DNA from: a virus
Lineage: Duplodnaviria; Heunggongvirae; Uroviricota; Caudoviricetes
Direction: 5' to 3' (one strand)
Length of the DNA stretch: 15,435 bases
IMG/VR virus record: IMGVR_UViG_2778261395_000001
Each line of letters starts with the position of its first letter. Position 1 is the stretch's first letter. The translations under genes were made by a program, and so were the position numbers. Below are positions 674 to 15,435 of this stretch, piece after piece. The notes under the pieces were generated by a model that saw only the letters and a list, made by a program, of their open reading frames with translations, ran no database searches and was not told the origin of the DNA.

Positions 674-750
674 GCGCCCTTAGCTCAGTTGGATAGAGCA
701 ACGACCTTCTAAGTCGTGGGCCGCAGGTTCGAATCCTGCAGGGCGCGCCA
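674..750 (+). tRNA. argU: tRNA-Arg, anticodon UCU
   Basis: GCGCCCTTAGCTCAGTTGGATAGAGCAACGACCTTCTAAGTCGTGGGCCGCAGGTTCGAATCCTGCAGGGCGCGCCA: 7-bp acceptor stem GCGCCCT/AGGGCGC, anticodon loop CTTCTAA with TCT at positions 3-5, T-arm GGTTCGAATCC, 3' CCA encoded. Confidence 0.9.
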
Positions 751-765
751 TTACAATTCAATCAG

Positions 766-1929
766 TTACGCCTTCTTTATATCCTCCATAATTCCAGAGT
801 GGGACATATTTGGGACATTATCACCAAAAATGTCGTCTATTTTCCTCGCATGCTCTGTCAAATGATTAGGCGCAAGGTGAGCATACCTACGAACCATTTC
901 TATGGACTCCCATCCGCCCATTTCCTGAAGCACTGATAATGGGACGCCTGACTGAATCAGCCAGCTTGCCCAGGTGTGTCTGAGGTCATGGAAACGGAAA
1001 TCTTCAATTCCTGCACGACGACAAGCTGATAGCCATGATGTCTTGCTGTCGATGCGCATCTTCCTGACCGCAGGCGTTGATGTTCCATCTGCTCGCTTAG
1101 CCGCCTTGGTATGTACAAACACCCATTTGTGATGCTTGCCTATTTGATCACGCAACACTTTACAGGCGGTATCGTTCAGCGCCACACCAATGGCGCGGTT
1201 TGATTTGCTCTCTTCTGGATTCACCCAGGCAACTCGTCGCTGCATGTCGATTTGTTGCCATTCCAGATTTATGATGTTCGACTTTCTCAGACCAGTTGCC
1301 AGCGCAAACTTGACGACAGATTTCAGTGGTTCGGGGCACTCATCAATAAGGCGTTTTGCTTCCTCCTTTTCCAGCCATCTGACTCGCTTGTTTCTGACCG
1401 CTGGTATCTTGATGACAGGCGCTTTTTCCAGCCACTTCCAGTCGCGTTCTGCAGCACGGAGAATGGCCTTTATCATGGCAAGATGCTTTGCCTTTGTCTG
1501 AGTTGATACTGGCTTTGGTTCATAAACAGGCAGTTCTTTACCTTTCCTGATGGCGGCCTGAACTTTCTGTTTCCATATTTCTTTCGTCTTTCTGTTATGC
1601 ATTCTGCTTACAGCAGAGTAAATCTTTGCCTCCGAGATATCTTTAAGCCTTATACCCTCAAAATGTTCAAGCCAGAACTCAATCCGGCTTTTATCTGAAT
1701 CGAGAGATTTTTTATCAGCTTTTTCCTCAAGCCATCTTAGGCAGGCCTCTTCAAAAGTGACATCAGGTAAATCCCCTAGCTTTTCTACTCGCCAGAGTTC
1801 TGCTTTTCGCTTGTCGTGCAACTCCTGAGCTTGCCGCTTGTCCTTTGTGCCAAGAGATTCCTTAATTCGTTTCCCGCCCGGGAGCGAATACGAGGCATAC
1901 CATATTTCATTTCTGCGGAAGAGTGACAT
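766..1929 (-). CDS. intD: Tyrosine-recombinase prophage integrase, 387 aa
   Basis: Complete ORF directly next to the tRNA 3' end; C-terminus carries the catalytic signature [11 protein letters not shown]...VRRYAHL (R..H-x-x-R..Y). Confidence 0.9.
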
Positions 1930-2156
1930 TTTCTTTCCTCTGTTATGCCATCACCCGCGCTCACCTGGACAGTATGCAGCGGAGACTGAAGCGCCGCAAT
2001 GCAGGCTTGCCGTGTTGTGAGGTAAGGAGATTTTGGCTTGGTTGGATCTTTACGTGTTGCCTGTAGGCGGCCTGTTCGTATCCAGTTGGTGGCGGTTGGT
2101 CTGGATATCTTAAGAAACTGACAGGCCTCATCGAGTGTGAGGCTGTATGATTCCAT
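1785..2156 (-). CDS. xisD: Excisionase-like HTH protein (Xis/AlpA-like); the 3' extension overlapping int is of doubtful significance
   Basis: [31 protein letters not shown] has a helix-turn-helix character; ATG at 2156 follows an AGAGGT ribosome-binding site; sits immediately upstream of int. The frame stays open 145 nt into int, so the functional length is uncertain. Confidence 0.5.
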
Positions 2157-2406
2157 GGTTACCTCTGCTTTTTGAACGCATGTCACGTAACTTCTTAATG
2201 TGTTCTGCCGTTTCGATCTCTTCTGCTATCCGATCTGCATCAGCTTTATTCACAGGTTCAAAGTCATGATTAAAGCGGAACATGCTGGCGATACATGTTC
2301 TGCCTTTTCGGATGTAGTGAACTTTGTTGTGGGTAGAACGCAGGATTTTGCAGGGAGTGCCGTGGTGGTCGACGTACCAGGTGTTAGGCAAAATGATTCT
2401 GAACAT
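2128..2406 (-). CDS. Hypothetical prophage early-left protein, 92 aa
   Basis: ORF with a GAGGTG ribosome-binding site 6 nt upstream of the ATG; same strand and tight spacing with neighbours. No motif recognised. Confidence 0.45.
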   Translation of the reverse strand: MFRIILPNTWYVDHHGTPCKILRSTHNKVHYIRKGRTCIASMFRFNHDFEPVNKADADRIAEEIETAEHIKKLRDMRSKSRGNHGIIQPHTR

Positions 2407-2453
2407 TTTTACACCTCAGTTGGACGATGTTGAAATTTGCTGCTTTGAGGCCA

Positions 2454-2672
2454 TCACAATCCCCATTGTTTGTTCTTAAGTTCGATCTCCTCCTGGCAGC
2501 TTGCACAAGTCCGACAACCCTGAACGGCCAGGCGTCTTCGTTCATCTATGGGATCGCCACACTCACAACAATGAGTGGCAGATATAACCTGGTGGTTCAG
2601 ACGACGCATTTTTATTGCTGTATTGCGCTGTAATTCTTCGATTTCTGATGCTGAATCAATGATGTCTGCCAT
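2454..2672 (-). CDS. TraR/DksA-family C4 zinc-finger protein, 72 aa
   Basis: Cys pairs CxxC ... CxxC in ...THCCECGDPIDERRRLAVQGCRTCASCQEE..., typical of phage TraR-like proteins. Confidence 0.55.
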   Translation of the reverse strand: MADIIDSASEIEELQRNTAIKMRRLNHQVISATHCCECGDPIDERRRLAVQGCRTCASCQEEIELKNKQWGL

Positions 2673-2770
2673 CTTCCATTAATCCCTGAATTGTTGGTTA
2701 ATACGCTTGAGGGTGAATGCGAATAATAAAAAAGGAGCCTGTAGCTCCCTGATGATTTTGCTTTTCATGT

Positions 2771-3085
2771 TCATCGCTCCTTAAAGACGCCGTTTAACAT
2801 GCCGATCGCCAGGCTTAAATGAGTCGGTGTGAATCCCATCAGCGTTACCGTTTCGCGGTGCTTCTTCAGTACGCTACGGCAAATGTCATCGACGTTTTTA
2901 TCCGGAAACTGCTGTCTGGCTTTTTTGATTTCAGAATTAGCCTGACGGGCTATGCTGCGAAGGGCGTTTTCCTGCTGAGGTGTCATTGAACAAGTCCCAT
3001 GTCGGCAAGCATAAGCACACAGAATATGAAGCCCGCTGCCAGAAAAATGCATTCCGTGGTTGTCATGCAGCCTCCCGACGGGCAA
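2771..3085 (-). CDS. Hypothetical small phage protein; start uncertain (ATG at 3085, or internal ATG at 2986 giving 71 aa)
   Basis: Open frame on the early-left strand; no recognisable motif; upstream part overlaps the 3' end of the Dam-like ORF. Confidence 0.35.
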   Translation of the reverse strand: MPVGRLHDNHGMHFSGSGLHILCAYACRHGTCSMTPQQENALRSIARQANSEIKKARQQFPDKNVDDICRSVLKKHRETVTLMGFTPTHLSLAIGMLNGVFKER

Positions 3086-3428
3086 GAATCCTTGAGCCGA
3101 ACGCCATCAACTCTCCACGATCAACGGTCGTAAAGTGGCAGTGTGTACGGGGGTATGGGTGCCAGATAATGAGCATCGAGCCTTTATTATTTCCACTGAC
3201 GTGTTTCCCGGTGAGTGGGTTAATAAATGCCAGTCGTCCTGCCGTGATGAATCTGACCTCACTGGCGGTTTGTATCGCTTCATGAAACCATCCGACAGAT
3301 GTGTCAGCAGGTAATAACATTACACATCCCACACTGCTGAATTTGTTTTCAGTGGCTGCCTTTTTCACAAAAGGGGAAATATTGCTGTATGGTGGATTCA
3401 ACCAGACATAACCAGAGGCATATCCCAT
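3063..3428 (-). pseudogene. Phage Dam-like DNA N6-adenine methyltransferase, 5'-truncated fragment
   Basis: NPPY catalytic motif (WLNPPY, nt 3387..3398) followed by LLPADTSVGWFHEAI and EVRFITAGRLAFINPLTG, resembling the phage Dam family. An in-frame stop lies two codons upstream of the first ATG, with no ribosome-binding site or expected N-terminal region. Confidence 0.55.
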
Positions 3429-3438
3429 TGCTTACTGG

Positions 3439-3675
3439 TTGGTTACCAACTTGTACCAGAACATGCGGGCCAATGCGCTGACTGACGCGGAATTACGGCG
3501 CAAGGCTGCCGATGAACTGTCCTGTATGACCGCGCGAATTAACCGTGGTGAGGCGATACCTGAACCAGTAAAACAACTTCCTGTCATGGGCGGTAGACCT
3601 CTAAATCGTGCACAGGCTCTGGCGAAGATCGCAGAAATCAAAGCTAAGTTCGGACTGAAAGGATCAAGTGTATGA
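3439..3675 (+). pseudogene. C-terminal fragment of a lambda P-like replication protein (P')
   Basis: Frame opens after a stop at 3409..3411 with no ATG; ends ...LAKIAEIKAKFGLKGSSV, overlapping the ren start (ATGA), as lambda P does. Identification is from gene order and recalled C-terminal similarity. Confidence 0.5.
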
Positions 3676-3974
3676 CGGGCAAAGAGGCAATTATTCATTA
3701 CCTGGGGACGCATAAGAGCTTCTGTGCACAGGACGTTGCCGCGGTAACAGGTGCAACCGTAACCAGCATAAATCAGGCTGCGGCTAAAATGGCGCGGGCA
3801 GGAATCCTGGTCGTTGATGGTAAGGTCTGGCGAACGGTGTATTACCGGTTCGCTACCAGAGAAGAACGGGAAGGAAAGGTGAGCACGAATCTGATTTTTA
3901 AGGAGTGTCGCCAGAGTGCCGCGATGAAACGGGTACTGAGGGTATATAAAAGAACATCAATGGGAACACAATGA
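3672..3974 (+). CDS. renD: Ren-like protein (lambda Ren homolog), 100 aa
   Basis: MTGKEAIIHYLGTH..FC..DVAA.TGATVTSINQAAAKMARAG..V..GKVWRTVYYRFATREEREGK.STNL.FKECRQSAAMKRVL is close to lambda Ren as I recall it. Confidence 0.8.
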   Translation: MTGKEAIIHYLGTHKSFCAQDVAAVTGATVTSINQAAAKMARAGILVVDGKVWRTVYYRFATREEREGKVSTNLIFKECRQSAAMKRVLRVYKRTSMGTQ

Positions 3975-3991
3975 TGAAACAGGTGAGTTGA

Positions 3992-4026
3992 GTTCAAACT
4001 GTAGTACAATTCTCTCCAGTTTGAAC
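3992..4026 (+). promoter_or_regulatory. Perfect 10-bp stem hairpin (GTTCAAACTG, 15-nt loop, CAGTTTGAAC) immediately upstream of the emrE ribosome-binding site
   Basis: Read directly; lies at the ren/emrE boundary. No T-run follows, so not a classic intrinsic terminator. Confidence 0.4.
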
Positions 4027-4041
4027 AGGAAAGAATATGCT

Positions 4042-4374
4042 ATGAACCCTTATATTTATCTTGGTGGTGCAATACTTGCAGAGGTCATTGGTACAACCTT
4101 AATGAAGTTTTCAGAAGGTTTTACACGGTTATGGCCATCTGTTGGTACAATTATTTGTTATTGTGCATCATTCTGGTTATTAGCTCAGACGCTGGCTTAT
4201 ATTCCTACAGGGATTGCTTATGGTATCTGGTCAGGAGTCGGTATTGTCCTGATTAGCTTACTGTCATGGGGATTTTTCGGCCAACGGCTGGACCTGCCAG
4301 CCATTATAGGCATGATGTTGATTTGTGCCGGTGTGTTGGTTATTAATTTATTGTCACGAAGCACACCACATTAA
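4042..4374 (+). CDS. emrE: Small multidrug resistance (SMR) efflux transporter EmrE, 110 aa
   Basis: MNPYIYLGGAILAEVIGTTLMKFSEGFTRLWPSVG...LLSRSTPH matches EmrE; conserved membrane-embedded Glu14 present; four hydrophobic segments. Confidence 0.9.
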   Translation: MNPYIYLGGAILAEVIGTTLMKFSEGFTRLWPSVGTIICYCASFWLLAQTLAYIPTGIAYGIWSGVGIVLISLLSWGFFGQRLDLPAIIGMMLICAGVLVINLLSRSTPH

Positions 4375-4404
4375 AATAATTTGTTTCTAAACGACTAAAA
4401 TATG

Positions 4405-4447
4405 GAGGCTCTTATATTTATATGAGCCTCGTTTTATGCTTTTTGTT
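4405..4447 (+). terminator. Intrinsic terminator after emrE
   Basis: Stem GAGGCTC / GAGCCTC with an AT loop, followed by GTTTTATGCTTTTTGTT. Confidence 0.55.
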
Positions 4448-4628
4448 AATGTCTTTATTTTTTATGTATTCTTTTGTGCTTTCAAGATTATGGCGTAAGA
4501 AAATTGCAATACGATTATTGTTGTATATTCAAGATAATGTGACCTTAATTGTCTTTTTAAATAAAAATTAAACAAAAATTATATCCCACCACTAAGGTTT
4601 ATAAAAGCATACGTTAGCAGGTGTCACC

Positions 4629-6155
4629 ATGAAAAAAGCCATAGCATATATGCGATTTTCATCACCAGGTCAGATGTCTGGCGACTCATTAAACCGACAG
4701 AGAAGACTTATTGCTGAATGGTTAAAGGTAAATAGTGATTATTATCTTGATACCATAACATATGAAGATTTAGGATTAAGTGCATTCAAAGGAAAGCATG
4801 CACAATCAGGAGCTTTTTCGGAATTTTTAGATGCTATAGAGCATGGTTATATATTGCCAGGAACTACATTGTTAGTTGAAAGTCTGGACAGACTTTCAAG
4901 AGAAAAAGTCGGTGAAGCGATTGAACGTCTGAAATTGATTTTGAATCACGGTATTGATGTTATAACTCTTTGCGACAATACAGTCTATAATATTGACTCT
5001 TTGAATGAGCCATATTCATTAATAAAAGCCATACTTATAGCACAAAGGGCAAATGAAGAAAGCGAGATAAAGTCAAGTCGGGTTAAATTATCATGGAAGA
5101 AAAAACGGCAGGATGCACTGGAATCAGGTACGATTATGACGGCGTCTTGTCCGAGATGGCTCTCCTTAGATGACAAAAGAACGGCTTTTGTTCCAGACCC
5201 CGACAGGGTGAAAACTATTGAGCTAATTTTTAAACTCAGGATGGAAAGGCGCTCATTGAATGCAATAGCCAAGTATTTAAATGATCATGCTGTAAAGAAT
5301 TTCTCAGGAAAAGAAAGTGCATGGGGACCTTCTGTAATTGAAAAATTATTAGCGAATAAAGCTCTGATAGGTATATGCGTACCTTCATATCGTGCAAGAG
5401 GGAAAGGGATAAGTGAAATCGCTGGCTATTATCCCAGAGTCATATCAGATGATTTGTTTTACGCTGTACAGGAAATTCGGTTGGCACCTTTTGGTATTAG
5501 CAATAGTAGCAAGAATCCTATGCTAATAAATCTACTTCGAACAGTTATGAAGTGTGAGGCTTGTGGTAATACCATGATTGTTCATGCGGTATCTGGAAGT
5601 TTGCATGGCTATTATGTTTGTCCGATGAGAAGATTACATCGATGTGACAGGCCATCAATAAAAAGAGATTTGGTTGATTATAATATCATTAATGAATTGC
5701 TTTTTAATTGTAGCAAAATTCAACCAGTTGAAAACAAGAAAGATGCTAATGAAACTTTAGAGTTAAAAATTATTGAGCTTCAGATGAAAATTAATAATTT
5801 AATCGTTGCATTGTCTGTCGCGCCTGAAGTTACCGCTATAGCAGAGAAAATAAGACTATTAGATAAGGAATTACGAAGGGCTTCGGTATCATTGAAAACT
5901 TTGAAGAGTAAAGGTGTAAATTCATTCAGTGATTTTTATGCTATTGACTTAACCAGTAAAAATGGACGAGAGTTATGCCGTACACTTGCCTATAAAACAT
6001 TCGAAAAAATCATAATTAATACGGATAATAAAACCTGTGATATCTATTTTATGAATGGCATTGTTTTTAAACACTATCCTTTAATGAAAGTAATATCCGC
6101 CCAGCAGGCGATAAGTGCTCTCAAATATATGGTTGATGGTGAGATTTATTTCTAA
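4629..6155 (+). CDS. ybcK: Large serine recombinase (resolvase-type catalytic domain, recombinase domain, zinc ribbon), 508 aa
   Basis: N-terminal AYMRFSSPGQ...R motif typical of serine recombinases; C-terminal CEACGN...YYVCP Cys cluster; AGGTG ribosome-binding site; AT-rich codon usage. Confidence 0.8.
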   Translation: MKKAIAYMRFSSPGQMSGDSLNRQRRLIAEWLKVNSDYYLDTITYEDLGLSAFKGKHAQSGAFSEFLDAIEHGYILPGTTLLVESLDRLSREKVGEAIERLKLILNHGIDVITLCDNTVYNIDSLNEPYSLIKAILIAQRANEESEIKSSRVKLSWKKKRQDALESGTIMTASCPRWLSLDDKRTAFVPDPDRVKTIELIFKLRMERRSLNAIAKYLNDHAVKNFSGKESAWGPSVIEKLLANKALIGICVPSYRARGKGISEIAGYYPRVISDDLFYAVQEIRLAPFGISNSSKNPMLINLLRTVMKCEACGNTMIVHAVSGSLHGYYVCPMRRLHRCDRPSIKRDLVDYNIINELLFNCSKIQPVENKKDANETLELKIIELQMKINNLIVALSVAPEVTAIAEKIRLLDKELRRASVSLKTLKSKGVNSFSDFYAIDLTSKNGRELCRTLAYKTFEKIIINTDNKTCDIYFMNGIVFKHYPLMKVISAQQAISALKYMVDGEIYF

Positions 6156-6619
6156 ATAATGATCTCGGATTTTAAGTTATGCTATGGTGATAAAGTGCAA
6201 GACAGAATTAATTATCTTTGACGAAACTTAATGGGTAATTACTTTGTTTGCTCCCACAAGCGAGTTTTGTACGGCTGTATTGGGGTAGTAAATGAGCTAT
6301 ACAATCTTAATCATTTGTTAGGTGAGAACTCTTGGTCGCAGATTCAAATACTGAAAATACGTGACAAATTATTATGAGCAAAATGGTGTATGTCACGTAT
6401 TTTGAATGGTAGGTTAAAAAATAACACCGACTTTCGTAGGTATTACTAATAATAAAGCAGAGTTTTTAGATAGTATCAATGTGCTTTGTGTATATTGTGG
6501 CAAATAATTGGGTTGGGGGTACAATTGTGATTGCTTTTGCATGAACATTGCGCCTTTATGCATAATGAGATAAAGGAATATCAAATAAAATAACGATAGG
6601 TCATAACAAAGAGGTTTTT

Positions 6620-7171
6620 ATGAAAACACTTATCGTTTCAACTGTATTGGCATTCATAACATTTTCTGCGCAGGCTGCAGCATTTCAGGTCACTAGTAAT
6701 GAAATAAAAACAGGAGAGCAACTTACAACGTCTCATGTCTTTTCTGGATTTGGGTGTGAAGGTGGTAATACATCGCCCTCATTAACCTGGTCTGGTGTTC
6801 CTGAAGGTACCAAAAGCTTTGCCGTAACTGTATATGATCCAGATGCACCTACAGGCAGTGGTTGGTGGCATTGGACTGTTGTTAATATTCCAGCAACAGT
6901 AACATATTTGCCCGTTGATGCAGGGAGACGTGATGGAACAAAACTGCCGACTGGTGCTGTTCAAGGCCGAAATGATTTTGGCTATGCTGGGTTTGGTGGC
7001 GCATGTCCTCCTAAAGGAGATAAACCACATCATTACCAGTTTAAAGTATGGGCTCTAAAAACTGAAAAGATTCCTGTAGATTCTAACTCCAGCGGAGCGT
7101 TAGTTGGTTATATGCTTAATGCTAATAAAATCGCAACCGCTGAGATAACACCAGTTTATGAGATAAAGTAG
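6620..7171 (+). CDS. ybcL: Periplasmic PEBP/RKIP-family protein (YbcL-like) with signal peptide, 183 aa
   Basis: Signal peptide MKTLIVSTVLAFITFSAQA; PEBP-like core motifs DPDAP and HHY; AGAGGT ribosome-binding site. Confidence 0.8.
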   Translation: MKTLIVSTVLAFITFSAQAAAFQVTSNEIKTGEQLTTSHVFSGFGCEGGNTSPSLTWSGVPEGTKSFAVTVYDPDAPTGSGWWHWTVVNIPATVTYLPVDAGRRDGTKLPTGAVQGRNDFGYAGFGGACPPKGDKPHHYQFKVWALKTEKIPVDSNSSGALVGYMLNANKIATAEITPVYEIK

Positions 7172-7180
7172 GGTGAGAGT

Positions 7181-7978
7181 ATGCTGGCAAGAGGTAAGAC
7201 TAACTTAAAGATCGAAGAAATACGGATGCATAAACATCATGAGATTCATAGGGTTAAGCCTCTTATGCCAGCTTTGTGTCGTATCCGTCAGGGAAAGAAA
7301 GTTATCAATTGGGAGACGCATACTTTAACTGTTGATAATAATCAAATAATATTATTTCCTTGTGGTTATGAATTTTATATTGAGAATTATCCTGAAGCAG
7401 GGCTTTATCTTGCAGAAATGCTTTACTTACCCATTGATTTAATTGAGAGTTTCCAAAAACTTTATACGGTAACTGATCAAATACGTAACAAAACAAGTTT
7501 CTTTTTACCTCAGAATCCTGAGTTAATATATTGTTGGGAGCAACTAAAAACATCTGTTTCCCGAGGCTTCTCAACTAAAATTCAGGAGCACTTAGCAATG
7601 GGCGTTCTACTATCGTTAGGAGTGAATCATGTTAATCATTTACTTTTATCATATAGTAAACAATCATTGATAAGTCGTTGTTATAACCTGCTGCTATCCG
7701 AACCCGGCACAAAATGGACAGCAAACAAGGTTGCTCGATATCTCTACATTTCTGTTTCTACATTACATCGCCGTCTAGCAAGCGAGGGGGTAAGTTTCCA
7801 AAGTATACTGGACGATGTGAGGTTAAATAATGCGTTGTCTGCTATACAAACGACGGTAAAACCTATAAGCGAGATTGCCAGAGAAAATGGTTATAAGTGT
7901 CCTTCTCGTTTTACTGAAAGATTTCATAATCGTTTTAATATAACACCAAGAGAGATAAGAAAAGCTTCCAGAGAGTAA
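7181..7978 (+). CDS. ybcM: AraC/XylS-family transcriptional regulator, 265 aa
   Basis: C-terminal AraC-type HTH region (...[33 protein letters not shown]...[15 protein letters not shown]); starts 10 nt after ybcL, so probably co-transcribed. Confidence 0.75.
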
Positions 7979-8042
7979 AAGTGTTTTAAGAAGGAGCAAT
8001 TCTATCGATTTTGATTTTGGGAAATCAACACGGCATAATTAT

Positions 8043-8080
8043 GTCACCGGAGCCTGAACAACTCCGGTGACTTCTGCGCT
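8043..8080 (+). terminator. Hairpin with perfect 10-bp stem (GTCACCGGAG / CTCCGGTGAC) followed by TTCTGCGCT; possible terminator after ybcM
   Basis: Read directly; the T-tract is weak, so terminator function is uncertain. Confidence 0.4.
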
Positions 8081-8094
8081 AAACGGGGACGTTT

Positions 8095-8196
8095 ATGCGC
8101 ACATACAATCCAAACTCTCTTCTCCCTTCACAGATGCAGAAATGCACCTGCAATTCTTTGCATCTAGCGTTTGACCTCTGCGGAGGTGAAGCGTGA
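8095..8196 (+). CDS. ylcH: Small ORF, 33 aa (ylcH-like), stop overlapping the ybcN start
   Basis: [33 protein letters not shown]; coding status not demonstrable from sequence alone. Confidence 0.3.
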
Positions 8197-8648
8197 ACCT
8201 CTCACAAGACGGCATCAAATTACATCGCGGCAACTTCACCGCTATCGGTCGGCAGATCCAGCCTTATCTGGAGGAGGGCAAATGCTTTCGCATGGTGCTT
8301 AAACCGTGGCGTGAGAAACGCAGTCTTTCCCAGAATGCACTCAGCCACATGTGGTACAGCGAAATCAGTGAATACCTCATCAGCAGGGGTAAAACGTTCG
8401 CCACTCCAGCTTGGGTAAAAGATGCTCTCAAACACACATATCTCGGTTATGAAACCAAAGACCTGGTTGATGTCGTAACCGGTGATATCACCACTATCCA
8501 GTCGTTACGCCATACCTCCGACCTTGATACCGGAGAGATCTATGTCTTCCTGTGTAAGGTTGAAGCCTGGGCGATGAATATTGGCTGCCACCTGACTATT
8601 CCGCAGAGCTGCGAGTTCCAGCTGCTGCGTGATAAGCAGGAGGCGTAA
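8193..8648 (+). CDS. ybcN: NinB-family phage protein (YbcN-like), 151 aa, GTG start
   Basis: Complete ORF starting at a GTG after GGAGGTG; first gene of a tightly overlapping nin-type operon. Confidence 0.75.
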
Positions 8649-8818
8649 TGGCTACACCGCTTATTCGTGTCATGAACGGACACATCTACAAAGTACCAAA
8701 TCGTCGTAAGCGTAAGCCTGAGCTGAAACCATCCGAAATACCAACACTGCTCGGATATACCGCCAGCCTGGTTGATAAAAAATGGTTGCGACTGGCAGCA
8801 AGGAGGAATCATGGCTGA
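8648..8818 (+). CDS. ninE: NinE-like small protein, 56 aa
   Basis: [37 protein letters not shown]...; start overlaps the ybcN stop (TAATG). Confidence 0.65.
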   Translation: MATPLIRVMNGHIYKVPNRRKRKPELKPSEIPTLLGYTASLVDKKWLRLAARRNHG

Positions 8819-9101
8819 TTTGAGAAAAGCAGCGCGTGGTCGGGAATGCCAGGTAAGAATCCCTGGCGTATGTAATGGCAATCCTGAAACGTCTGTACTG
8901 GCACATATCCGGCTGGCTGGATTGTGCGGTACCGGTATCAAACCGCCAGACCTGATTGCCACCATTGCATGTTCTGCCTGTCACGACGAGATCGACCGTC
9001 GCACGCATTTTGTTGACGCTGGATATGCAAAAGAATGCGCGCTGGAAGGTATGGCGAGAACGCAGGTTATCTGGCTGAAAGAGGGGGTAATTAAGGCGTG
9101 A
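8811..9101 (+). CDS. ybcO: Cys-rich nin-region protein (YbcO-like, putative nuclease), 96 aa
   Basis: [42 protein letters not shown]...[13 protein letters not shown] with conserved Cys/His cluster; AGGAGG ribosome-binding site. Confidence 0.7.
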
Positions 9102-9460
9102 ATACCTACAATATCACATTACCCTGGCCGCCGAGCAATAATCGCTATTACCGCCATAATCGCGGGCGCACGCACATCAGCGCAGAGGGGCAGGCATACC
9201 GCGAAAACGTCGCCCGAATCATTAAAAACGCAATGCTGGATATCGGCCTGGCTATGCCTGTGAAAATCCGCATTGAGTGTCACATGCCGGATCGCCGTCG
9301 CCGTGACCTGGATAATCTACAAAAGGCCGCTTTTGACGCACTCACCAAAGCAGGTTTCTGGCTGGATGATGCTCAGGTCGTTGATTACCGCGTTGTGAAG
9401 ATGCCGGTTGTCAAAGGTGGAAAGCTGGAACTGACCATCACTGAACAGGGAGATGAATGA
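9098..9460 (+). CDS. rusA: Holliday junction resolvase RusA, 120 aa
   Basis: [36 protein letters not shown]...[31 protein letters not shown] matches RusA with catalytic Asp residues. Confidence 0.9.
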
Positions 9461-9597
9461 TGTTTGAGTTTTATATGGCAGAACTTCTTCGCCACCGCTG
9501 GATGCGCCTGCGCTTATATCGTTTCCCCGGTTCTGTTTTGACCGATTACCGAATACTGAAGAATTACGCCAAAACACTGACAGGAGCAGGAGTATGA
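9457..9597 (+). CDS. ylcG: Small nin-region ORF, 46 aa (ylcG-like)
   Basis: [46 protein letters not shown]; start overlaps the rusA stop. Confidence 0.4.
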
Positions 9598-9682
9598 AGT
9601 CAGAGATAACAATCAACTAATACTGTTTTGTTGATTTTTGCTTGTAATTGGCGTTCTGGTCTGAGTTTTGTGGAGTAAGTTG

Positions 9683-10066
9683 ATGCGTGATATTCAGATG
9701 GTTCTTGAGCGTTGGGGAGCGTGGGCGGCTAATAATCATGAAGATGTGACCTGGTCGTCCATTGCCGCCGGTTTTAAGGGATTAATTCCTTCAAAAGTAA
9801 AATCTCGCCCACAATGTTGTGACGATGACGCGATGATCATTTGCGGGTGCATGGCCCGTCTGAAAAAGAACAACAGCGATTTGCATGATTTATTAGTAGA
9901 TTATTATGTAGTCGGTATGACATTCATGTCACTGGCAGGTAAGCATTGCTGCTCTGATGGTTATATCGGGAAAAGGTTACAGAAGGCTGAGGGCATAATT
10001 GAAGGGATGTTAATGGCATTAGATATCCGGTTAGAGATGGATATCGTTGTTAATAACTCTAATTAA
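9683..10066 (+). CDS. quuD: Late-gene antiterminator Q-like protein, 127 aa
   Basis: [24 protein letters not shown]...[16 protein letters not shown]... with Cys-rich zinc-binding region; GGAGTAAG ribosome-binding site; sits at the end of the nin region where Q is expected. Confidence 0.8.
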
Positions 10067-10255
10067 TATGCCAATTGTTTACTAAAAATTATTAAAAATG
10101 GGGCGTTGAGACGCCCCCAAAAATAAAGGGTAATATATAACAGAAGGTTTATATAGTTAGAAGCAAGGTTGTGCTTCTAAAGGAAGTGGCTTGAGGGAGC
10201 CACTTATATGTTGGGGAGGCAAAGCCTCCCGCAACATATCTTTTTCGTAATCAGA
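10067..10255 (+). promoter_or_regulatory. Hairpin-rich region downstream of Q: candidate late promoter/qut/terminator, including a near-perfect ~15-bp palindrome (10208..10241) followed by CTTTTT
   Basis: Stems GGGGCG/CGCCCC (10098..10115), GTGGCT/AGCCAC, and ATATGTTGGGGAGGC-AAA-GCCTCCCGCAACATAT, then a T-run. Functions are inferred from position only. Confidence 0.35.
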
Positions 10256-11338
10256 TTAGAACTGATACACCAGACCTACAGCGACGATGTCGTCGGTATC
10301 AATACCAGCTGTTTTGGTAAACTTACTATCGTCAATTAAGTTGATTTTGTAATCAACAAAAGTGGACATGTTTTTATTAAAGTAGTAAGTAGCACCGACA
10401 TCGACATACTTGACTAAGTCTCGGTCACCATGAACACCAAGGTCTTTACCTTTTGACTGAAGGTAAGCAACAGATGGTCGCAGACCGAAGTCAAACTGAT
10501 ATTGTGCTACTGCTTCAAAGTTTTGTGCTTTGTTTGCAATATGGTTATTACCAAAAACGGTCATATTCTGAGTTTCAGAATATGTGGTAGCCAGATAGAT
10601 ATTGTTCGCATCATATTTCAGGCCTGCAGCCCATACTTCCGCATTTTTGCCGGAGGCATTGAATTTGCTCTTACCATAGGCGACCTGACCGTCAGTGCGA
10701 TCTGATTTAGCATAGGTTGCACCCACGCCGAATCCTTCATACTCATAAGTAGTGGAGAAACCGAAACCATCACCATTGGCTTCAGTTACGTCAGTGCGGT
10801 CATTTTTACCCTGATACTGAGCAGCAAAGTTCAGGCCATCGACCAGACCAAAGAAGTCGTTGTTACGATAGGTTGCAACACCAGTGGTGCGACCAGTCAT
10901 GAACACATCTGTTTGGGTCCAGGTATCGCCACCGAATTCTGGCAGAACGTCAGTCCACGCACCGATGTCGTATGCTACACCGTAGTTACGGCCGTAATCG
11001 ATTGAGCCGTAGTCACCGAATTTCAGGCCTGCAAATGCAAGACGGGTTTTGTCTTTGGAGGAACCTTGAGATTCAGCGCGGTTGCCTTTGAATTCATATT
11101 CCCACTGACCGAAACCAGTCAGTTGATCGTTGATTTGGGTTTCACCTTTGAAGCCAAGACGGGCATAAGTAGTATCACCATCATCTGCATCGTTAGAGGA
11201 AAAGTAGTGCTTGGCATTAACTTTCCCGTACAGATCCAGCTTGTTACTGTCTTTATTATAAATTTCAGCTGCCTGAGCAGACATCGCCATCAGTACTGAT
11301 GCAGCTACAGCAGAAATTGCCACTGTTAATTTTTTCAT
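10256..11338 (-). CDS. nmpC: Outer-membrane general porin (OmpC/OmpD/NmpC family), apparently intact, 360 aa
   Basis: Signal peptide [23 protein letters not shown], then [17 protein letters not shown]...; ends with the porin C-terminal signature ...VAVGLVYQF. Confidence 0.9.

Positions 11339-14139: not shown

Positions 14140-15435
<1,296 letters not shown>

Follow-up and report, generated by a model that had tools for sequence, protein, structure and literature searches.

A head-to-head junction of truncated Dam and P genes, very probably a deletion scar, in a DLP12-type cryptic prophage at argU

Introduction

How do the remains of a gene for a phage N6-adenine methyltransferase (Dam) and of a gene for a lambda P helicase loader come to lie head to head, with no immunity region between them? 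The question is raised by a locus in a 15,435-nt viral sequence (IMG/VR record IMGVR_UViG_2778261395_000001), the whole of which is called the window here. An initial annotation, made from the sequence alone, explained the arrangement by a single deletion. We found that the window represents a DLP12-type cryptic lambdoid prophage, DLP12 being a textbook cryptic prophage, and that the site is very probably a deletion scar, a conclusion that holds alike for one deletion event or for several. It should be noted that the feature is already known, as both fragments are marked as partial pseudogenes in the NCBI annotation of Escherichia coli ATCC 8739, where the PGAP labels read 'DNA N-6-adenine-methyltransferase, incomplete, missing N-terminus' and 'replication protein P, incomplete, missing N-terminus'.

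Results

The element was identified by its site and by its gene content. It adjoins tRNA-Arg(UCU) argU, beside which the intD integrase gene is found (Table 1), and its chromosomal context is fimZ-argU-int ... appY-ompT. Over its whole length, the window is 99.94% identical to ATCC 8739, with two exceptions, its first 77 nt and a difference of 1,053 bp close to the right end; the segments common with the DLP12 of K-12 are 99.6-99.8% identical. Window positions 2700-4400 matched ATCC 8739 and others with 100% identity in a megablast search of 5,426 complete E. coli genomes. The right arm was recognized by the cargo genes emrE, ylcJ, ybcK, ybcL, and ybcM (PGAP, with Pfam for ybcK, ybcL, and ybcM), and the gene order 3' of ren is emrE, ybcK, ybcL, ybcM, ybcN, ninE, ybcO, rusA, ylcG, quuD, porin, essD, rrrD, rzpD, and bor/iss. 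This is the DLP12 gene set, as annotated by PGAP on the 99.9%-identical ATCC 8739 locus and, for ybcK, ybcL, ybcM, and quuD, as detected by Pfam. Beyond the window, the element consists of tail-fibre remnants reaching appY and ompT. To the left of the junction, the early-left block (2128..2986, minus strand) is collinear with the intact phage PhiR30_1, with 98.5% identity.

Table 1. Features of the window around the junction of the Dam and P fragments
Feature	Position	Strand	Description and basis
tRNA-Arg(UCU), argU	674..750	+	Attachment-site side of the prophage; ARAGORN; tRNA-Arg in ATCC 8739, argU in K-12
intD integrase	766..1929	-	387 aa, left end of the prophage; ORF list; PGAP 'intD integrase'; 99.6% identity to K-12
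DUF4222	2128-2406	-	Early-left gene, kept; Pfam; PGAP
TraR/DksA zinc finger	2454-2672	-	Early-left gene, kept; Pfam; PGAP
orf61	2771-2986	-	Early-left gene, kept; Pfam; PGAP
Dam', putative pseudogene	3063..3433	-	Residues 64-185 and stop of a 185-aa phage N6-adenine methyltransferase
Probable deletion junction	3432..3434	.	TT at 3432-3433 common to both parents; break at 3433/3434
P', putative pseudogene	3434..3675	+	Residues 154-233 and stop of a 233-aa lambda P helicase loader; no native start
ren	3672..3974	+	Intact, 100 aa, overlaps the P stop codon; ORF; PGAP 'protein ren'; alignment with intact phages
emrE	4042..4374	+	First DLP12-specific cargo gene; PGAP annotation, near-identical ATCC 8739 locus

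The Dam fragment holds a minus-strand ORF of 121 aa (3063-3428) with an ATG start, which reads AMGYASGYVWLNPPY. Alignment with two intact 185-aa proteins places this ATG (3428-3426) at the internal Met65 of the intact protein. Over residues 64-185, the stub and the intact members share 98% identity, and residues 1-63 are missing. The ORF had been described as beginning 10 codons before its NPPY motif with an in-frame stop just upstream, and this is what we observed: the Met lies exactly 10 codons before the Asn of the motif, which is kept as LNPPYS (NPPY at 3398-3387, minus strand), and a TAA is found two codons upstream of the Met. Read across this stop, the minus-strand Dam frame gives ...VTNQ, then the stop, then AMGYASGYVWLNPPYSNIS....

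Profile searches supported the assignment to the Dam family. The stub matched Pfam PF05869 with an E value of 4.8e-35 and 121.2 bits (cut-off 28.1), covering profile positions 60-168 of 169. Against NCBIfam TIGR01712, it reached 96.8 bits, just below the cut-off of 97.05, over positions 63-165 of 165; an intact relative reached 165.6 bits over positions 3-165. A complete Dam domain is not present, as the N-terminal third, including the WRTP...LDAAAS block of intact members, is gone. The role of this block was assessed from profile coverage, and no relative of the Dam family with a solved structure was found by sequence (best E 0.28). The Dam stub is best read as a pseudogene that would not qualify as a functional Dam.

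On the plus strand, the P fragment reads YWLVTNLYQNMRANAL... up to its natural stop at 3675, its frame running through ...AYWLVTNLYQNMRANALTDAELRRK... before that stop. It had been noted as a C-terminal fragment without a start codon, and residues 154-233 are indeed all that remains, with no native start; the sole in-frame start-like codon is TTG at 3439. The stub is 93% identical to P of PhiR30_1 over these residues and matched the Phage_lambda_P profile (PF06992) with an E value of 6.2e-10 and 39.5 bits (cut-off 26), over positions 117-162 of 162. Lambda P is made of domains I (residues 1-29/40), II (to 118), III (119-192), and IV (193-233), and the C-terminal lasso formed by domain IV binds DnaB and is likely the first part to bind stably (PMC12661323). 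With domain limits based on the lambda P structures PDB 8v9t, 8v9s, and 6bbm, the stub contains the C-terminal half of domain III and all of domain IV. It is not a full four-domain P, and its upstream neighbor is the Dam stub, not O. Cut inside the folded domain III, it too is best read as a pseudogene, which on its sequence would not count as a functional P.

We then asked where each homology ends. In a megablast search of 50,697 phage records, the left homology (PhiR30_1, 98.5%) covered window positions 2700-3433, ending at 3433, while the right homology, to the P-ren region of many lambdoid phages (up to 98.9%), began at 3432-3433; no record among the 50,697 spanned both sides. In three-way alignments, using PhiR30_1 for the Dam side and either PhiR30_1 or the DLP12 of strain P13-6 for the P side, the window agrees with the Dam side up to ...CCCATTGCTT and switches to the P side at ACTGGTTGGTTACC...; taken together with the megablast end points, the right homology starts at 3432-3434. 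One homology meets the other at 3433/3434, where the sequence is GCTT/ACTGG, with 0 nt between them and no filler DNA. The gap of about 10 nt seen in the initial annotation is correct as the distance between the mechanical ORF starts, but it does not separate the homologies themselves. The TT shared by the two parents is a 2-nt microhomology as measured against the closest intact P, that of the DLP12 of strain P13-6. Bases 3432-3434 give, on the minus strand, the TAA (3434-3432) that closes the Dam frame, and this stop lies upstream of the Dam ORF because the junction turns Dam codon E63 (GAA) into TAA.

An IS-mediated deletion was considered and ruled out, as the homologies abut without foreign bases and no IS end lies nearby. 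An antisense ORF at 3432-3713 (93 aa) and the other unannotated ORFs gave no Pfam hits and were set aside as spurious.

The material missing between the two stubs can be read from intact relatives. The layout in PhiR30_1 is int-DUF4222-TraR-orf61-Dam-orf60a-exo-bet-gam-kil-(three ORFs)-cI-cro-cII-O-P-ren, and the same module is intact in the thrW prophage of strain 98221. The lost interval corresponds to PhiR30_1 positions 2708 to 10134, or about 7,425 bp, a size taken from a mosaic relative because no direct progenitor was found that combines the exact left arm (Dam) and right arm (emrE-ybcK) with an intact middle. The genes lost are orf60a, exo, bet, gam, kil, cI, cro, cII, O, and two thirds of P.

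The six frames of the window were searched by tblastn with 18 proteins from two intact relatives (exo, bet, gam, kil, orf60a, three hypothetical proteins, two sets of cI/cro/cII/O, P, and Dam). Just two of them matched, both at the junction: Dam over residues 64-185, with an E value of 8e-81, and P, with an E value of 9e-47. None of the other 16 proteins of the missing region gave a match below E = 0.1 anywhere in the window, and the best E value for O was above 1. The reported absence of cI, cro, cII, and O therefore stands, as does that of the immunity region, but the loss is wider than had been described: the whole Red/gam/kil block is gone too. Between the early-left and early-right genes there is no repressor, Cro, cII-type activator, or O. 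An intact repressor/operator module or an O homologue was likewise found neither in the window nor in the remainder of the element; PGAP annotates no repressor anywhere along the element, the part beyond the window included, and Pfam detected none in the other ORFs.

We also looked for signals that might drive expression of the stubs. The predicted anti-Shine-Dalgarno duplex is -2.9 kcal/mol upstream of the Dam ATG at 3428, compared with -4 to -12.5 kcal/mol for 12 annotated genes of the window, in agreement with the earlier remark that this ORF has no ribosome-binding site. The value upstream of the P TTG is -0.9 kcal/mol, this codon having no Shine-Dalgarno sequence. A promoter/terminator scan of positions 2900-4100 did not support a new promoter at the join, as two promoter-like sites were found against 1.4 expected from shuffles; both are on the plus strand, inside Dam antisense.

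Of the 5,426 complete E. coli genomes, 35 carry the complete 160-bp junction, among them E. coli C and ATCC 8739. At least 80% of window 2700-4400 is covered in 65/5,426 genomes, and the junction is present in about 65; coverage suggests that the other 30 or so would carry a second deletion of the BL21 type, for which one strain (BAP1) was examined. In BAP1, which is BL21-derived, the window junction is accompanied by a further deletion of 274 bp (window 3474-3747, AA microhomology), by which P' is mostly removed and ren is deprived of its first 25 codons. The K-12 junction is found in 315 complete genomes, and Dam'/P' is a minority DLP12 allele.

Alternative junctions observed among DLP12-like prophages are exo/O', bet'/P', exo/P', exo'/P', Dam'/P', and DUF1317'/ren. 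In LD27-1, a nearly full-length exo (675/681 nt) is joined to 606 nt of P, and in E200086, bet' is joined to the same P position. Z217-2 has an exo/O' join in a DLP12-like prophage at icd, and IAL7255 has a DUF1317'/ren join.

Three pairs of DLP12-family variants coincide at one break point, to within 1-5 nt, and are joined there to different partners. P13-6 (bet'/gam') and E200086 (bet'/P') have a bet break point in common; E200086 (bet'/P') and LD27-1 (exo/P') have a P break point in common; and the Nu1 break point at window 14869/14870 is that of the Nu1/J join of ATCC 8739, the J partner of which lies 1,053 bp further upstream. By a rough estimate, without a computed statistic, each coincidence would occur about once in 100 to once in 1,000 cases under random end points. 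This suggests either that deletions are anchored at older junctions or that there are local hot spots. The scar could then be a snapshot of a non-random erosion in which old junctions or particular sites are re-used as later end points, a reading that we regard as doubtful; if true, prophage decay would have a mechanistic directionality rather than being a random loss. The Dam'/P' junction itself shows no such re-use.

Discussion

We propose that the ancestor of this element would have had the order int - DUF4222 - TraR - orf61 - Dam - orf60a - exo - bet - gam - kil - ... - cI - cro - cII - O - P - ren, and that the interval from Dam codon 63 to P codon 153 (about 7.4 kb) was probably removed, the ends being joined by illegitimate recombination at the TT microhomology, for which one event is the simplest account. 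The early operons run leftward and rightward away from the removed immunity region, and such a loss would therefore leave their distal parts head to head. A single deletion with its junction near 3430..3440, as first suggested, is borne out in its position (3433/3434) and in the loss of about 7.4 kb; that it was one event is not demonstrable, as sister lineages have eroded stepwise. A single event is nevertheless the most economical reading, and we consider it rather likely.

The main competitor, which we judge possible but clearly less likely, is a stepwise history in which an earlier and smaller deletion (for example, bet-to-P or exo-to-P) inactivated the prophage, and Dam'/P' was then produced by at least one later deletion that crossed the first junction or began there. 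Erosion in steps is documented for sister lineages: the K-12 exoD'/peaD' junction equals the LD27-1 form once another 668 bp have been taken out across the join, the BL21-type copy is the window form minus 274 bp, E200086 and LD27-1 combine one P break point with different left partners, and P13-6 and E200086 share their bet break point. The intermediates that this history calls for were not seen, however. Among the 60 records sampled from 3,350 matching ones, no Dam was truncated elsewhere and no intact Dam lay beside an older junction; in the same sample, Dam-orf60a-exo was either complete (244 genomes) or ended exactly at the window break point. Furthermore, the bet'/P' lineages have DUF1382 in place of Dam, so they are not direct ancestors.

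Domestication of the stubs is a different possibility, in which the 121-aa Dam ORF or a P peptide of 78-80 aa would be expressed and useful; for example, the P lasso might bind DnaB and thereby act against superinfecting lambdoid phages. The Dam stub is still an uninterrupted ORF of 121 codons with an ATG, the P stub retains the entire DnaB-binding lasso of domain IV (PMC12661323), and ren is intact downstream. Nevertheless, we find this very improbable, as Shine-Dalgarno pairing is absent at both starts (-2.9 and -0.9 kcal/mol) and promoter signals are not above chance, the Dam stub is without profile positions 1-59 and scores just below the TIGR01712 cut-off, and the break in P falls within domain III. 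In addition, the BL21-type copy is without most of P' and the start of ren, and ren of K-12 holds an IS3, which is the opposite of conservation. Both stubs are best read as drifting and as eroded further in other strains.

It is equally hard to credit that two different prophages were joined here by illegitimate recombination between elements, with the intervening chromosome lost or inverted. The best match of the left arm (PhiR30_1, 98.5%) and the best matches of the right arm (P13-6 and PhiR34_1, about 99%) do come from different genomes, and right arms of the DLP12 type are found in a prophage at icd as well. Against this, the order, the orientation, and the context (fimZ-argU-int ... appY-ompT) are those of one prophage at one site, PhiR30_1 alone has both arms in the same order and orientation, and the mosaicism that is normal among lambdoid phages needs no chromosomal rearrangement. 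Finally, an assembly chimera can practically be discounted: the window looks like a draft contig, as it opens with exactly 77 nt of an IS1 end, in an IS1/fimZ join that no complete genome has in just this form, and closes inside a repeated tail gene, but the identical 160-bp junction is present in the 35 complete genomes, ATCC 8739 and E. coli C included, and a modified form of it in one BL21-derived strain.

If the site is a deletion scar, the consequences for the element would be considerable. From gene content, we infer that it is unable to set up immunity, to be induced, or to replicate. The early promoters and operators, the repressor, Cro, the cII-like regulator, and O would have been removed with the interval, together with the regions of P that contact other P subunits. 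The lambda replication origin sits inside O, and the origin would have gone along with this gene. The kept early-left genes and ren would be left without their normal upstream promoters, and kil and the Red genes would no longer be carried by the element. Its late structural genes are missing as well.

Taken alone, the junction is of little importance, being an ordinary scar in a well-known cryptic prophage. It does bear on annotation: the 121-aa 'Dam' and 78-aa 'P' ORFs should not be called genes, and the element should be listed as unable to be induced or to replicate. The junction at 3433/3434 is also a clean lineage marker that differs from the K-12 allele and is found in E. coli C, in ATCC 8739 (Crooks), and in at least one BL21-derived strain. 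The alternative junctions at one locus are good material for studies of prophage decay.

The closest known system is the DLP12 of K-12 (exoD'-peaD'-renD; b0539/b4508/b0542), which resembles the window in its argU site, its integrase, its right arm from ren to quuD, and its lysis genes, and which also has an early-left stub head to head with a P stub and no immunity region. The break points differ. In K-12, an exo stub is joined to P codon 131 (312 nt of P), whereas in the window, Dam codon 64 is joined to P codon 154 (243 nt). K-12 has a second join, xisD'/orf60a', and the window has neither of the K-12 reference junctions (xisD'/exoD' and exoD'/peaD'). The K-12 element is without DUF4222, TraR, orf61, and Dam, and it carries an IS3 inside renD; its homology to the window breaks at 2024 and resumes at 3432.

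The complete phage genome record of PhiR30_1 (PV340558) agrees with the window in its integrase, in the order int-DUF4222-TraR-orf61-Dam, and in the orientation of P-ren. It retains the 7,425 bp missing from the window, including full Dam and full P, and its cargo 3' of ren is an acyltransferase and a lipoprotein, not emrE-ybcK-ybcL-ybcM. The DLP12 of E. coli O141:H4 strain P13-6 (NZ_CP080223) has the argU site, the integrase, and the ren-emrE-ylcJ-ybcK-ybcL right arm of the window, and its P-ren is the nearest intact match to P'-ren of the window, being identical over 40 nt after the break. Unlike the window, this prophage retains kil, an S24-type repressor, cro-like and cII-like genes, O, and full P; it has a small bet'/gam' deletion and has DUF1382 in place of TraR-orf61-Dam.

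DLP12 has been reported at its locus in 74% of 638 genomes and described as a widespread grounded prophage (PMC6379469), and its lysis and terminase genes still work once recombined into lambda (PMC3945230). The window follows the same pattern as the grounding, or domestication, of prophages by deletion, in which regulatory, replication, and lethal early genes are lost while cargo and some late genes are kept. It does not differ from this general pattern in kind, and its Dam'/P' junction is one among many alternatives.

A less decayed allele and other routes of immunity loss

The DLP12 prophage of E. coli O141:H4 P13-6 is a far less decayed allele of the prophage in the window. It retains kil, a repressor gene of the S24 family, cro-like and cII-like genes (the latter with a YdaT domain), O, and a full-length P, all of which sit upstream of ren-emrE-ybcK. 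The P13-6 allele provides a natural reference for the genes that DLP12 has lost. The immunity region of DLP12-like elements has also been lost in further independent ways, as in strains Z217-2 and IAL7255 (see table).

Some break points recur among the DLP12 variants. The break in bet is common, within 1 nt, to the bet'–gam' join of P13-6 and the bet'–P' join of E200086 (primes denote truncated genes), while the break in P is common to this E200086 join and to the exo–P' join of LD27-1, with GGTAC microhomology. This re-use points to either serial deletions anchored at existing junctions or deletion hot spots.

Features of the window and of the comparison loci (strand given for window features)
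Feature	Location	Strand	Remarks
ORF overlapping the integrase start	window 1785-2186	-	partial excisionase-type HTH_17 match
93-aa ORF, ATG start	window 3432-3713	-	on the strand opposite P' and the 5' end of ren
274-bp deletion in BAP1	window 3474-3747 (vs L005, BAP1, 2620)		AA microhomology
Porin gene, annotated ompC, at the nmpC position of DLP12	window 10256-11338	-	intact 360-aa ORF
DLP12 at argU	L011 (P13-6) 14183-20889		E. coli O141:H4 P13-6
Break-point re-use regions	L011 (P13-6) 15620-15760; L009 (E200086) 5334-5474; L004 (LD27-1) 3145-3265		
exo–O' join, P intact	L010 (Z217-2) 4527-7070		E. coli Z217-2 prophage at icd, with ren-emrE-ybcK
DUF1317'–ren join	H260 (IAL7255)		

Further erosion of P' and ren

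The BL21-derived strain BAP1 carries the same Dam'–P' junction as the window plus a 274-bp deletion. This deletion takes out most of P' as well as codons 1-25 of ren, which shows that neither of them is being maintained by selection. The antisense 93-aa ORF has no Pfam match and is most likely a chance ORF.

Putative excisionase, porin, and left end

The HTH_17 match of the ORF overlapping the integrase start covers positions 2-32 of the 51-position profile, and PGAP calls a 66-nt pseudogene at 2091-2156 ("HTH, missing C-terminus"). Judged by CDS coordinates, the genes here line up with those of PhiR30_1, a complete phage record, at a constant offset of 725 nt, so the pseudogene call may be an annotation artefact rather than a real loss of Xis.

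The prophage porin ORF is intact; in K-12, nmpC is interrupted by IS5.

Positions 1-77 do not match fimZ of ATCC 8739 or K-12, and homology runs from 78 onward. These 77 nt look like the terminal inverted-repeat end of IS1, which indicates that fimZ of the source strain carries an IS1 insertion. An annotated IS1 neighbours fimZ in other genomes; the exact IS1–fimZ join of the window was found in no complete genome. Overlaps of 77 nt are typical of contig ends in draft assemblies.

A second deletion scar

Besides the Dam'–P' junction, another large deletion scar was observed at 14869-14881. Homology to the terminase small subunit Nu1 stops there, ending in ...GAACTGAT, and homology to the tail-tip protein J starts at the same scar with GCCGACGTTGC...; therefore, all of the head genes and most of the tail genes are missing. 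In ATCC 8739, by comparison, the Nu1 break lies 3 nt beyond that of the window (...GATACC, then CGAACACGG across the break), and J is 1,053 bp longer than the remnant in the window.
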